Translations under genes and position numbers: made by a program
Shown here: positions 21,800 through 57,284 of the stretch, piece by piece
How the letters are laid out: every line of letters starts with the position of its first letter
Position numbering within the stretch: the first letter of the stretch is position 1
The notes under the pieces: model-generated
Databases searched by the model: none
Told to the model about the DNA's origin: nothing
The model's input: only the letters and a program-made list of their open reading frames with translations
Source: Nitrosopumilus sp.
Lineage (GTDB): Archaea > Thermoproteota > Nitrososphaeria > Nitrososphaerales > Nitrosopumilaceae
Direction: 5' to 3'
Length of the DNA: 64,000 nucleotides
Assembly: GCA_965207445.1 (NCBI GenBank)
Contig: CBDBLX010000002.1
Coordinates: forward strand, 1,719,849-1,783,848

Positions 21800-21880
21800 G
21801 TAACCGTTCAACCCCTTCCCAAATTTAGGCACAAATTCACCGCTTAACGTCTGGCGCAGGTACGGGGGTTGAACGGTTAC
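21800..21880. mobile_element. 81-bp MITE family A, copy 1
   Basis: TIR GTAACCGTTCAACCCC / GGGGTTGAACGGTTAC. Confidence 0.9.
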
Positions 21881-28068: not shown

Positions 28069-28686
28069 TTGGTCTACTATGACACCAATGTGTGGGTGGC
28101 GTGGATGTTGTGTCCTGACGACAAATTCTATAAAAGCTCCAAAAAACTGATAGATGATGTTACAAGTGGCAAGAAAGTGGCAATAGTTTCCTACATAGTC
28201 ATACTAGAAACGATTCACGTCTTGCGAGAAAAGATGACAAAAGGCCACAAGTTTGAGACAGACTATGACACATATCATGCTCAAATTGAACACAGAATAA
28301 GAGAAGACACAAAAAAAATATGCGTCAAATTCACACTCTTGCTAGTCGAAGACAAGTAATCTTAGTAAAACCAAATATTGGTTTGGCTGAACATCACGTA
28401 CGAGTTTTGCGTGAACTGGTACGACGTTTTGGTCCCATCAAAACGTTCAGTCGATGTTCATCCTGTGGCGAGAAATTATCTTCTGAAAGTCTGATCAAAA
28501 TTTGCCCCAAATGCAAGGCGGGCATCATTCCGGCCAAATTAGAATATAGAGGGCTCGGCCATGCAGATCTGGAACATGCACTCCTTGCTAGACGCTACAA
28601 CGTGAAAACGTTCTACAGCAGTGATCGCGCATTTAAGCAGTTTAATGACGATAGGACTTTCAGAGGAATGTATTTTAAAACAATAT
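28069..28686 (+). pseudogene. PIN-domain (VapC-like) toxin with a zinc-ribbon insert; frameshift at A8 and 3' end cut by IS481
   Basis: LVYYDTNVW..VILETIHVL, then GLGHADLEHALLA..FYSSDRAF in the -1 frame; CSSC/CPKC insert; native tail YFKTIYSQ* resumes after 31472. Confidence 0.8.
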
Positions 28687-28854
28687 TAAGTTGTCTTGTA
28701 AGTAGTTCCGCCTTGAGTGTACGCCTAGATATGATCATAGGAATAATCGTCAATGTAAGTAGTTCCGCCTTGAGTGTACGCCTAGATATAATCATATTTA
28801 ATATGAAGCGTATGATGAGTTTAGCTTTTATGCCCACTTGGAGAGAAAAGAAAA

Positions 28855-29988
28855 TTGGCTACTAGTGGCGTAGATCCTCATATATCCGTGTGCGGAGTGG
28901 AAATGAAGGTGTGTGGGTCCAATCATGATCCTCGTACAAAGATCAAAACTAGGCTCAAAAATGGTAAAAAACTTCGTGTAATACATAAACTTGATGAGGA
29001 ACAGGTACGGTGGATAGTTCAGCAAAAGCACAATGATGAGATGAGTGACGCCCAGATTGCAAAATTAGTGGGTGTATCTGCACGATGGGTTAGAAAATTG
29101 TTCTTACGATATGGTCATTTACAGCCAAAAGATATCACATATCCTCCAAAGATGGGACGTCCTTCTAATGGATTACCAGGCCGTCGAGAACATTCTGCAG
29201 TGATATCTTGTTGCAAGCAGAACAGACGTATGGCAGTCAGACTCGAGACTATAATAGAAGAAGAAATCGGAATCCATATTTCTCACAATATCATATATAA
29301 GATATTGAAAGATGAGGAGTTAGTAGAAAACCAACCAAAAAAAGCAAAGCAGCGAAAGTGGGTTAGATATGAGAGAAGATTCTCAAATTCTTTATGGCAT
29401 ACGGATTTTAAGCAGATTTACGATGGTAGATGGTTTGTGTCCTATCAGGACGATGCATCTAGGATGATTATGGGCTTTGGAGTGTATAATGAACCTACAA
29501 GTGTTCATGCAATAAAGGTGCTTGAGGGCGCCATCAAGAAATACGGTAAACCTGCCCAAATACTAACGGATCATGGATCTCAGTTCTATGCAAATGAGAA
29601 AAAGAACTCTGAGCGCGGTGTAGCAGTATTTGAGAACAAGTTAGTCGAGCTTGGTATCAAACAAGTCATGGCACGTATAAAACACCCTCAAACCAATGGT
29701 AAATTAGAACGATTCCACTCTGAGATTGAACAACATCTAAAATCATTTGAAGAAGAGTCTGCATGTAATACAGTTCGTGGTTCCAAACCCGGCGACCATG
29801 TGGGGAATCCATTCCATACTAGGGGTATAACAGACCCAATAACAAGACTCGTCAACTGGTACAATAATCTCCCACATATGTCACTAAAAGACGGTAAAGA
29901 AACGCCTATAGAAGCCTATAAACGCAAACAAGCACCAAAAGACATAACAGCAAAAGAAATGGAGAGTCATGCATATGTCAAATCATAA
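28855..29988 (+). CDS. IS481-family DDE transposase (true start may be downstream)
   Basis: HTH, then RYER..NSLWHTDFK, QDDASR, ILTDHGSQF, HPQTNGKLERF, YNNLPH. Confidence 0.92.
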   Translation: MATSGVDPHISVCGVEMKVCGSNHDPRTKIKTRLKNGKKLRVIHKLDEEQVRWIVQQKHNDEMSDAQIAKLVGVSARWVRKLFLRYGHLQPKDITYPPKMGRPSNGLPGRREHSAVISCCKQNRRMAVRLETIIEEEIGIHISHNIIYKILKDEELVENQPKKAKQRKWVRYERRFSNSLWHTDFKQIYDGRWFVSYQDDASRMIMGFGVYNEPTSVHAIKVLEGAIKKYGKPAQILTDHGSQFYANEKKNSERGVAVFENKLVELGIKQVMARIKHPQTNGKLERFHSEIEQHLKSFEEESACNTVRGSKPGDHVGNPFHTRGITDPITRLVNWYNNLPHMSLKDGKETPIEAYKRKQAPKDITAKEMESHAYVKS

Positions 29989-30004
29989 GTGGAACTAACC
30001 ATAT

Positions 30005-31231
30005 GTGGCACGAAAAACACAACAGAGCAGAAATTCAGATGGTATAGATCGTGATTCGCACAAGCAAAATGCAAACAAACAGATTAGGGGTAGAAAAAAT
30101 GACCATATGGATAGTCATAGCGTAAGCAAGGTGAAAAAAACAACCACAAAAACATCGGTAAAATATGATAATGCTCAAAAATATTTTGTTGGTATTGATC
30201 TTCACAAAAAATTCATGCAAGTGGCAATTATGGATCCTAAAGGTAATGTTCTTCAAAATAAACGAATTGAGTGCAATCATATTGATATTGTAAAAGAATT
30301 TTCTGAGTTTCCGCCCAATGCAAAATACGTGTTGGAATCTTCTTCAGTATGGTATGGCATGTATAGATTTCTCACAGAAAAATTGCATTTGGATGTGATG
30401 TTATCAAATCCACTTGCAACAAAACGAATAGCTGAATCAAAAAAGAAGACAGATAAAGTAGATGCTCGTATATTGGCAGATCTGCTAAGGGGTGGATATA
30501 TTGCAGGATGTTATGTTCCAGAGGAAAAGGATGTGCATAATAGACAATTGGTCAGGTATAGAAGTACAGTAGTAAAGTCTAGAGTAAAGTCCAAAAATAG
30601 TGTTCATGCAATATTGTTACAAAGTGGAATCAAGATCAAAGGGATTCCATTTTCTGCTGAACATATACAAAATTTACGCAAGCTTAATGACTGGAGGATA
30701 GACAAACATATCAAAACAATTGCATTTTTAAATGATGATGTTCGTGATTGTGATGATAAAATATCCAATGCAGTATCAAAAAACGAACATGCTTCACTTT
30801 TGACTACAATGCCTGGAATCGGTCCTGTTACTGCGCTTACATTATCATCTGAAATTGGTGATATCTCAAGATTTCGTGATATGGGCAGTCTTGTTGCTTA
30901 TTTTGGACTAGCTCCATCTGTGAGGAATTCTGCCAGTACAGTTCACCATGGTGCCATAACGAAAATGGGAAATTCCATGGTTCGACAGTTGCTCACAGAA
31001 TGTGTGTTGTCTCATGTGCAGTTTGCAAAGAATAATAATCGACAGACTCCAATAAGTGTATTTTATGAAAGATTAAAGGAGAAAAGAGGCGTCTCAAAAG
31101 CACAGGTTGCCGCTGCTGCCAAGATGCTCAAAATTGTATTTTGGATGCTAACAAAGAATATAGATTTTTGGACATGTATAGAGATGGGTAAAAAGAGTAC
31201 ACATCGTAACCCCAAGAAAAAAAATGAATAG
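30005..31231 (+). CDS. IS110-family DEDD recombinase (start at 30107 is plausible)
   Basis: VGIDLHK, VLES, KTDKVDA (DEDD); MPGIG..EIGDISRF..YFGLAPSVRNS; KAQVAAAAKML. Confidence 0.95.
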   Translation: MARKTQQSRNSDGIDRDSHKQNANKQIRGRKNDHMDSHSVSKVKKTTTKTSVKYDNAQKYFVGIDLHKKFMQVAIMDPKGNVLQNKRIECNHIDIVKEFSEFPPNAKYVLESSSVWYGMYRFLTEKLHLDVMLSNPLATKRIAESKKKTDKVDARILADLLRGGYIAGCYVPEEKDVHNRQLVRYRSTVVKSRVKSKNSVHAILLQSGIKIKGIPFSAEHIQNLRKLNDWRIDKHIKTIAFLNDDVRDCDDKISNAVSKNEHASLLTTMPGIGPVTALTLSSEIGDISRFRDMGSLVAYFGLAPSVRNSASTVHHGAITKMGNSMVRQLLTECVLSHVQFAKNNNRQTPISVFYERLKEKRGVSKAQVAAAAKMLKIVFWMLTKNIDFWTCIEMGKKSTHRNPKKKNE

Positions 31232-31239
31232 ATGTGAAA

Positions 31240-31400
31240 AATTATGGTTAGGGATTTGTGCGTTGTAAGTGTGAGATTTAATGCTCGGGGAACTAACTGC
31301 ATGGTGCCCCTAACGAATGGATGAAGCATGGTATTGAGATTTAATGCTCGTATAGATACATATCCGAACCATCCTCCGGAAAAACACCACCCTAGCGTAT
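31240..31400 (+). ncRNA. Predicted bridge/seek RNA of the IS110 element (target-binding and donor-binding loops); boundaries approximate
   Basis: Stems 31247-53/31308-14 and 31319-23/31361-65 each enclose guide-hairpin-guide; guides match the target and donor junctions. Confidence 0.8.
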
Positions 31401-31689
31401 GCTGCGCACTTTAGTACGAAAAGTGAAGAATCGCTTATAAGGATCCCACATAGATACTTACAGGATAGCACAATTTTAAAACAATATATTCACAGTGACG
31501 CTTTATAGTACACGCTCAGACCGGCCCCAAATTTGTGTTCATGGTTATGTGCCGTTCATGTACTTTGTCTGTGACTTCAATTAACGCGAGTGTATAGAGA
31601 CCAGTCAGATATACTTTCTTGCAATAAGAAAGTGTGCAAGCGCACGTGAGTTCAATTCCCTTCTCACATCAAGAATATCATGTTAGTCC

Positions 31690-31770
31690 GTAACCGTTCA
31701 ATTTCCGTGCCTGCACCAGATGTTAGACGGTGAATCTATGCCTAAATTTGAGGAGGGGTTGAACGGTTAC
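31690..31770. mobile_element. 81-bp MITE family A, copy 2, with 9-bp TSD TGTTAGTCC
   Basis: TIRs plus direct repeats at 31681-31689 and 31771-31779. Confidence 0.92.
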
Positions 31771-32018
31771 TGTTAGTCCATGCACAACATATTTCATATG
31801 CAAAATGCTAGGTTTTCCTCATTTGTAATAAAAATGGATAAGGGATATTGTAAGTGCCCCGATTCGCTTTCTGCCGTCTAAAGGTATCCAGGCCCCCGCT
31901 TACAGCGCCACTACCATTGTCACCATCATCACTCTTCTTCCCGAACCGATCTGTCCCATATTTGAAATAAAACCTGCCAACAGACATGTTGCACCGCATG
32001 CATCACCATAATATGACG

Positions 32019-33536: not shown

Positions 33537-33619
33537 GTAACCGTTCAACCCCCGGTTACCTGCACAAGAAGTTAGACTGTGAATCTGTGCCTAAACTTGA
33601 GAAGGGGTTGAACGGTTAC
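33537..33619. mobile_element. MITE family A, copy 3 (83 bp)
   Basis: Same TIRs; no TSD; joins unrelated gene fragments. Confidence 0.9.
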
Positions 33620-54952: not shown

Positions 54953-55033
54953 GTAACCGTTCAACCCCCTCTCAAATTTAGGCACAGATTCACCGTCTAA
55001 TTTCTGGTGCAGGTATGAGGGTTGAACGGTTAC
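54953..55033. mobile_element. 81-bp MITE family A, copy 4
   Basis: Same TIRs and internal sequence; no TSD. Confidence 0.9.
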
Positions 55034-57203: not shown

Positions 57204-57284
57204 GTAACCGTTCAATCCCCGTGACTGCGCCAAAAGTTAGATGATGAATCTGTGTCTAAACTTGGGAAGGGGTTGAACGGTTAC
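57204..57284. mobile_element. 81-bp MITE family A, copy 5
   Basis: Same TIRs; orientation opposite to copy 4; no TSD. Confidence 0.9.

Follow-up and report, generated by a model that had tools for sequence, protein, structure and literature searches.

What directs one mobile element into the terminal repeat of another? The question is raised by a 64,000-nucleotide stretch of a Nitrosopumilus sp. assembly (GenBank GCA_965207445.1, contig CBDBLX010000002.1, positions 1,719,849 to 1,783,848 of the forward strand; hereafter the window), in which an insertion sequence (IS) of the IS1111 type occupies positions 29998-31456 of the plus strand (1,459 bp including the right-hand TA) and splits the right inverted repeat of an IS481-like element. 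From our analysis, this is very probably an intact member of the IS1111 group (IS110 family) in a Nitrosopumilaceae-type archaeon, with a DEDD/Ser recombinase guided by an RNA of ~170 nt from the right end of the element. We showed by computation where the element is inserted and at which core, which DNA its guides match, what structure the RNA has, and that the guides covary with flanks and element ends; RNA production and binding, circle formation, catalysis, and present activity we infer by analogy with characterised systems. The genome that holds the window has 2.6 Mb and 39.6% G+C, its rRNA operon scores best with archaeal small-subunit and large-subunit models, and the nearest homologues of the recombinase protein are found in Nitrosopumilus and Cenarchaeum assemblies, so that the archaeal origin assumed in an original prediction, made from the letters of the window, proved right.

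The junctions define the insertion exactly. On the left side, positions 29989-29997 read GTGGAACTA and the element starts at 29998 with ACCATATGTGG; on the right side, the element ends with CCACATAGATA (31446-31456), of which 31455-31456 is the right copy of the TA core, and the flank at 31457-31472 reads CTTACAGGATAGCACA. The inner half of the split inverted repeat (29989-29997, plus strand) thus carries the left target GGAAC with the core TA at 29996-29997, and the outer 16 bp (31457-31472, plus strand) form the right target. Removal of 29998-31456 in silico gives TGTGCTATCCTGTAAG-TA-GTTCCAC on the minus strand, and this restored end is identical letter for letter to three intact IS481-like right ends of the same genome (C2:664337, 893567, and 1322195), which read TGTGCTATCCTGTAAG-TA-GTTCCACTTATGA. 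Since these uninterrupted ends are the exact product of the deletion, the element was inserted at a single TA. TA occurs once in the empty site and flanks the element on both sides in the occupied one, i.e., it is a core dinucleotide without a true target duplication. The claims of the original prediction that deleting the element restores an IS481 right inverted repeat and that the core is TA are thereby borne out, the latter proven by the empty sites.

The host element lies at 28687-31472 (plus strand), is bounded by a 15-bp target-site duplication, ATTTTAAAACAATAT, at 28672-28686 with the identical 15-mer at 31473-31487, and its ends align with three other copies. Its DDE transposase open reading frame (ORF) of 377 amino acids (28855-29988, plus strand) matches the Pfam rve domain, and its best NCBIfam match, NF033577, reaches 152.5 bits, below the cut-off of 224, so the host is assignable only as IS481-like, a name that denotes the best match. 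The left inverted repeat of the same copy holds an empty target site, TGTAAG-TA-GTTCC (28697-28709, minus strand, core 28703-28704), and a second one lies within a 57-bp internal duplicate of the left end (28754-28766, minus strand, core 28760-28761). This tandem duplication (28687-28800), which produces the second, internal target site, is present in 3 of the 4 full IS481 copies listed. Across the genome, the target word TGTAAGTAGTTCC occurs 10 times, every time in an IS481-like end (10/10), the exact empty sites being three right ends, four outer left ends, and three copies of the 57-bp internal duplicate.

A genome search with the element found eight places, namely the window copy, a second full copy of the same type (type A), two full and one partial copy of a sister type (type B), and three type A remnants. 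Over 1,459 bp, the second full copy is 99% identical to the window copy, with 14 substitutions and a single 1-base indel between them, and in both the ORFs are intact and the guides identical. Its insertion point is the same TA, here within the left repeat belonging to a fifth IS481-like copy, and its orientation is unchanged; the flanks are GGCGGAAC-TA and CTTACAAGACAACTTA. The remnants retain TGAAC-TA at the left, or CTTACAGG or CTTACAAG at the right. Both intact copies (2/2) thus lie within IS481-like inverted repeats, all three remnants (3/3) retain a cognate half-site, two of them with a flank resembling the inverted repeat, and the orientation is constant: the element points out of IS481 and cuts the outer 16 bp of the repeat off from the remainder of its host. 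The predicted targeting of IS481 ends therefore holds in the intact copies, the remnants' half-sites, and the empty sites, for a host designated IS481-like; the other genomic copies on which that prediction could be checked, the second copy and three remnants, are placed in the same sequence.

Beyond the assembly, run X5 of a second study (labelled sponge metagenome) contained pieces of the element at ~99% identity together with an intact IS481-like right end. A protein scan of metagenomes returned one partial relative (L120, 73% identity), which is cut short ahead of the RNA; its left flank is a different one, GTTACAAT-TA. Loose contig ends at 29994 and 29997 were considered as traces of excision and rejected, as they equal intact IS481 copies.

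The element ends in a non-coding right end of 225 nt after the recombinase stop codon, within which a bridge/seekRNA is predicted at 31241-31410 (plus strand; covariance model R1, 135 bits). Its target-binding loop (loop 1, 31247-31314) consists of stem P1, GTTAGGG at 31247-53 with CCCTAAC at 31308-14, stem P2 (31260-62/31298-300), and hairpin P3 (31273-86); P2 of the window copy was assigned by hand, since both MAFFT and the covariance model misaligned it. The donor-binding loop (loop 2, 31319-31365) consists of stem P4, GGATG at 31319-23 with TATCC at 31361-65, and hairpin P5 (31335-50). Both loops lie on the plus strand. A seed alignment of nine homologous right ends, taken from this genome and from relatives, was folded with RNAalifold without guidance and gave two internal loops closed by stems, both with a small hairpin as cap, and compensatory changes in 8 of 25 pairs. 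The covariance model, searched over 98 loci (358 kb), had 39 matches at E<=1, 37 of them below 1e-3, which lie directly 3' of a recombinase gene with the exception of one extra copy at a locus edge (L044:4-178) and include relatives from Methanomassiliicoccales and Archaeoglobi. In the alignment of 37 homologues, which was fitted to the covariance model and is hence biased towards the structure, 95.6% of cells pair and both sides have changed in 15 of 25 pairs; none of 500 shuffles reached the observed pairing, and controls with slid partners paired at 34-45%. Three pairs are G.U in 34, 33, and 36 of the 37 rows, which is indicative of an RNA of this strand. An Rfam scan of 28500-32000 with E up to 10 returned four chance-level matches and no bridge-RNA family.

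The unpaired sides of the two loops spell the target and the joined element ends. In loop 1, the right-target guide TTGTAAGTG (31263-31271, plus strand) is antisense to the core A plus CTTACAA of the right flank, matching the flank of the second copy at 8/8 and that of the window copy at 7/8 with one G.U. It stands 5' of the left-target guide (31289-31297, plus strand), which is in left-flank sense and reads GGAAC-TA followed by AC, equal to the first two bases of the element (handshake-like), so that it reproduces the left junction GGAAC+TA+AC at 9/9. In loop 2, the right-donor guide GCATGGTAT (31326-31334, plus strand) has the reverse complement ATA-CCAT, for which the pairing partner in the left end is ..A-TA-(A)CCAT, one base being skipped; the left-donor guide ATAGATA(C) (31352-31359, plus strand) has the same sense as the right end ATAGA + TA and matches this donor half and core at 7/7. 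The guide words named in the original prediction stand at the predicted places (TTGTAAGT at 31263-70, GGAACTA at 31289-95, GCATGGT at 31326-32, and ATAGATA at 31352-58), and its coordinates, stems, and sub-terminal repeats were likewise exact throughout. As a chance test for this single element, 5,000 mononucleotide shuffles of the right end were made; a 9-mer of the left junction was reached in 26/5000, a 7-mer antisense to the right junction in 402/5000, and both in 2/5000. A left-end motif, (T)CAGATGGTA, at 30040-30052 and at the corresponding place in relatives resembles the right-donor guide, as a second copy would. Within the N-terminal extension of the recombinase it codes for S-D-G, and it changes together with the first bases of the element (ACCAT/ATGGT, ATCAT/ATGAT, and ACCGT/ACGGT).

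Do the guides change when the sites change? For this, 26 elements with well-defined ends were listed with their guides and junctions (of the 39 matches, 13 were omitted as having no clear end, being a duplicate locus, or being weak), and covariation was scored on flank-only positions, real and control pairs being given equal, small latitude in register. At the right flank, an element's own guide matched with a mean of 5.64/7 (n=25) against 3.82 for cross-lineage pairs (n=559), and at the left flank with a mean of 3.76/6 (n=25) against 2.27 (n=564). With 11 lineage representatives, none of 7,292 derangements reached the observed sums of 61 and 45 (maxima 49 and 36). The covariance-model check proposed with the original prediction thus shows guides that co-vary with flanks across 11 lineages, and its two guide loops are supported by structural covariation as well as by guide-flank covariation. 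Near relatives change a guide base and the matching flank base together, as in L013 (CTGATAAC) compared with L015 (CTGGTAAC) and in L003 compared with L004; further afield, among the Methanomassiliicoccales relatives, the left guide of L066 matches its own junction at 9/9 and the right guide of L064 at 9/10. The permutation statistics cover the target guides, and the donor guides were judged by eye from the tables, in which the right-donor guide follows the left end (CCAT, TCAT, CTAT, or CCGT) and the left-donor guide follows the right end (ATAGA or ATGGA, with GG as the core in distant relatives). Every guide segment of the Methanomassiliicoccales relatives has the core GG. The original prediction had also called the recombinase potentially reprogrammable; the support for this lies in natural retargeting among relatives.

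In L044-47/L087, L013, and L014, the left junction has TA and the right junction TG (TT in two copies). The right-target guide of L044-L047, L087, L013, and L014 also has TG, a systematic asymmetry of the core. It could arise from a target core that differs from the donor core, with the version of one strand being inherited, and an insertion through the top strand only, as proposed in a preprint (bioRxiv 10.1101/2025.10.25.684509), would be compatible with this.

The recombinase ORF (30005-31231, plus strand) encodes 408 amino acids from GTG 30005 or 374 amino acids from ATG 30107. It matches PF01548 and PF02371 (E 7.4e-24 and 9.4e-23, both above the curated cut-offs) and NF033542 ('IS110 family RNA-guided transposase') with 241.1 bits against a cut-off of 140; residues D65, E111, D150, D153, and S309 (the last in GLAPSVRNSA, which fits the IS1111 pattern bar its last G) are invariant in 6/6 aligned homologues. 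The predicted identity as an IS110/IS1111 recombinase with the DEDD and Ser residues is well founded in these matches. In the IS621 and ISCro4 chains, the counterparts of these catalytic residues are the GID, E, DxxD, and SG positions, and the solved IS110-group proteins are distant relatives (ISCro4, E 3e-8; IS621, E 5.4e-7). The closest relatives of the recombinase are all archaeal, with bacterial ones at only ~31% identity; a plasmid tblastn search returned 3,157 records, annotated generically as 'IS110 family transposase'. The sub-terminal inverted repeats, TATGTGG (30002-30008, plus strand), which contains the in-frame GTG at 30005-30007, and CCACATA (31446-31452, plus strand), are 7 bp each, lie 4 and 2 bases inside the element ends, and are within the IS1111 range of 7-17 bp. 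Residues 180-305 match the NCBIfam model of the TIGR-Tas RNA-guided endonuclease weakly (E 2.2e-9, 37.6 bits, cut-off 100), which agrees with the published kinship of Nop-like domains. The genome has three further, distant genes of the IS110 family (28-32% identity), at C2:2063382-2064410, 1275314-1276342, and 1166258-1167061.

In the mechanism that we propose, a sense-strand RNA of ~170 nt from the non-coding right end, with two internal loops, would guide the recombinase. Loop 1 would act as the target loop and read both target halves around TA, and loop 2 would act as the donor loop and read the joined element ends likewise (ATAGA+TA and TA+(A)CCAT). By analogy with IS621 and with the IS1111 seekRNA elements, the joined ends, CACATAGA-TA-ACCATATG, would be the donor. 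The RNA would bridge donor and target, the recombinase would swap strands at the shared TA, and the insertion would result in one orientation, 16 bp from the tip of an IS481-like inverted repeat. As the target is such a repeat, it multiplies along with IS481.

Several observations weigh against an intact RNA-guided element. The single-sequence minimum-free-energy fold of the right end is no better than that of shuffles (z 0.07), and because of this the structure rests on comparative evidence and not on thermodynamics. The right-donor guide matches discontiguously, with 5/7 contiguous (a discontiguous right-donor pairing is described for IS621 too; PMC11208160). The full type B copies match their right flanks at only 4/7 and 2/7 in a hand-fixed register (5/7 and 4/7 by sliding score), the left match is just 2/6 in four elements, and 13 of the 39 matches did not enter the covariation test. 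In the protein, the residue next to S309 is A and not the G of the GL-P----S(G) motif. Lastly, no RNA run was listed for this sequence among the public runs, and no circle junction or joint was found in the contigs of runs X1, X2, X3, and X5. The lone fold is also what could be said for a classical site-specific recombinase that picks its site by protein alone, with the right-end structure serving mRNA 3' end formation or regulation. We regard this as scarcely credible, since in 11 lineages the loops vary in step with flanks and ends, whereas compensatory changes keep the stems paired, and since the same logic recurs with a GG core in the Methanomassiliicoccales relatives.

The missing joint bears on another explanation, that the bridge-RNA element is correctly decoded yet no longer mobile, the match between guide and target being a fossil of past insertions. 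Two intact copies facing 10 empty sites and three decayed remnants would fit such a history, as would a contig end suggesting that one copy in the population is interrupted at 30673 by a small repeat; the 99% identity of the two copies with their intact ORFs and identical guides, the presence of every catalytic residue, and the ~99% identical pieces in a second study speak against it, and we consider immobility unlikely. Somewhat less unlikely, and still the weaker option, is a separate archaeal IS110-family branch that works like IS1111 and stands outside the IS1111 group proper. The transposases of IS1111 are given as 330-350 amino acids with a GL-P----S(t)G motif (PMC11187229), shorter than the 374-408 of the present recombinase; the donor internal loop is simple as in IS621, whereas many IS1111 orthologues are reported to have a multi-loop one (PMC11208160); and the archaeal company of the protein, its distance from bacterial relatives, and its weak matches to the solved IS110-group proteins (E 3e-8 and 5e-7) all point the same way. 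In its sub-terminal repeats, its downstream RNA, its guide order, and its GL-P----S motif, on the other hand, the element fits IS1111, and we retain an intact IS1111-group element as the preferred reading.

How would such an element express its recombinase? A TATA-like box, TTATAA (31435-31440, plus strand), points out of the right end, and a box of this kind lies 20-21 nt before the core in 16/16 right ends listed, including that of the 62% G+C relative L014. When the ends are joined, the sole TATA-like hexamer of the last 70 nt starts at -29/-30 from the G of the GTG in 22/24 elements; in the remaining two, both type B copies, TTTATTAA occupies the place of the box. The in-frame GTG is at element nt 8, and the core with the first element base forms a TAA that closes the frame just upstream. 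Among elements in which the catalytic motif was found by pattern (the pattern missed 3/25), the recombinase frame is open from element nt 2 in 22/22, with 0-8 stops in the other two frames, and only 1-21% of shuffles were stop-free. A codon-position test of the N-terminal extension showed no third-position excess of changes, and the case for its translation therefore comes down to the open frame, in-frame indels, and short conserved motifs. In 975 long ORFs of the genome, TATA-like hexamers peak at -29/-28 from the ATG (83 and 74, against a background of ~12), a sharp peak which indicates that leaderless or near-leaderless transcripts are common in this genome, and the TATA-to-GTG spacing of the joined ends agrees with the leaderless-promoter spacing of this genome.

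The spacing and its conservation suggest a split promoter. It is possible, though we hold it tentatively and a little short of probable, that in this clade the recombinase gene is wired to the circle, with a BRE (B recognition element)/TATA-like box at the right end and a start codon at the left end, such that a leaderless, GUG-initiated, full-length mRNA would be made only after joining and the bridge RNA would be its 3' part. In the circles of ISEc11 and ISEc21, -35 and -10 boxes are united by end joining (PMC11187229). As in these bacterial junction promoters, the right-end promoter element would face the recombinase gene only after joining; unlike them, it would be an archaeal TATA box, placed at -29/-30 relative to an in-frame GTG, and this placement suggests a leaderless mRNA. 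A limited literature search did not find an archaeal junction promoter or leaderless arrangement of this kind. If true, the arrangement would parallel, in archaea, the split -35/-10 junction promoter of bacteria, and it would show circle-specific expression through archaeal transcription and leaderless translation.

The type B sister element is represented at C2:1400917-1402257 (L003), 1188214-1189556 (L004), and 723486-723879 (L007); it shares 66% DNA and 58% protein identity with type A and has different guides. Its guides predict the target GAAAT-TA-TATACTA, which is similar to a repeat present at least 11 times (...CAATAATGAAATYATATACTTGTATTTGG...). That repeat holds no type B copy (0/3), and the match between the guide and the right flanks of the three copies is poor. 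The window also contains an 81-bp repeat resembling a miniature inverted-repeat transposable element (MITE), with inverted ends GTAACCGTTCAA...TTGAACGGTTAC, at 31690-31770, 21800-21880, 33537-33619, 54953-55033, and 57204-57284. The copy at 31690 has a 9-bp duplication, TGTTAGTCC, on both sides, and the genome contains 183 occurrences of the 13-nt end word. Contig ends in X1 and X2 suggest that the interruption at 30673 in one population type A copy is by this 81-bp repeat.

What the element adds has to be read against the existing literature. The novelty implied by the original prediction was overstated, as earlier papers describe IS1111 bridge/seekRNAs, their right-end location, and the reversed guide order (PMC11208160, PMC11187229), and Vaysset et al. 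catalogued 662 IS110 recombinases of archaea (bioRxiv 10.1101/2024.06.21.599552). Durrant et al. (2024) predicted bridge RNAs in 93% of the ISfinder IS1111 elements, at the right end (PMC11208160); Siddiquee et al. (2024) showed seekRNAs experimentally, described the top-strand match 5' of the bottom-strand match in the IS1111 family, and noted the archaeal entries ISHvo9 and ISHvo10 (PMC11187229); and 32,190 bridge-RNA loci were mined from sequences of bacteria and archaea in a 2026 preprint (10.64898/2026.10.21.760802). Our search found no description of the present archaeal clade in the literature, and the supplementary tables of the bridge-RNA surveys, which lay outside it, may list the clade. 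The mechanism class is already known, and the element is a clean further example and not a new principle. IS1111 elements that target transposon inverted repeats are already known as well. The value of the locus is that of a decoded natural RNA-guided recombinase of a mesophilic archaeon, with a TA core, guides of ~7-9 nt, and proof by empty sites; its naturally retargeted relatives, known from Nitrosopumilaceae, Methanomassiliicoccales, and Archaeoglobi, could extend the choice of bridge recombinases, both for engineering and for work on their behaviour in archaeal cells. In an IS-rich genome, it is also a case of an insertion sequence for which a second one, through its ends, provides a landing pad that renews itself.

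Among the known systems nearest to the element are ISEc11, ISPa11, and ISKpn4 of the IS1111 group, which have a right-end seekRNA (PMC11187229) and with which it shares a DEDD transposase, sub-terminal inverted repeats, a long downstream non-coding region, a top-strand match 5' of the bottom-strand match, the overlap of the two at the insertion point, and natural retargeting accompanied by RNA changes; unlike them, it has an archaeal host, a longer ORF with a basic N-terminal extension, and an IS481-like inverted repeat as target, and it is known from sequence alone. With the IS621 bridge RNA it has in common target and donor internal loops, each with two guides that pair to opposite strands and include the core, and one discontiguous donor guide, and the two-base extension of its left-target guide resembles handshake guides (PMC13626964). 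It departs from IS621 in that the RNA is in the right end and not the left, the guide order within the loops is reversed, the core is TA and not CT, and the protein similarity is weak (E 5.4e-7). ISEc21 of the IS110 group targets a conserved stretch in IS3-family transposase genes (PMC11187229) and is, like the present element, an RNA-guided insertion sequence that targets another insertion sequence; its target is coding, its RNA is upstream, and its guide order is opposite, whereas an inverted repeat is the target here. The element has inserted at a specific site and in a specific orientation, within a terminal inverted repeat that belongs to a different mobile element. It shares this habit with the IS1111 elements of transposon inverted repeats, from which it differs in its IS481-like host element and in its domain of life.

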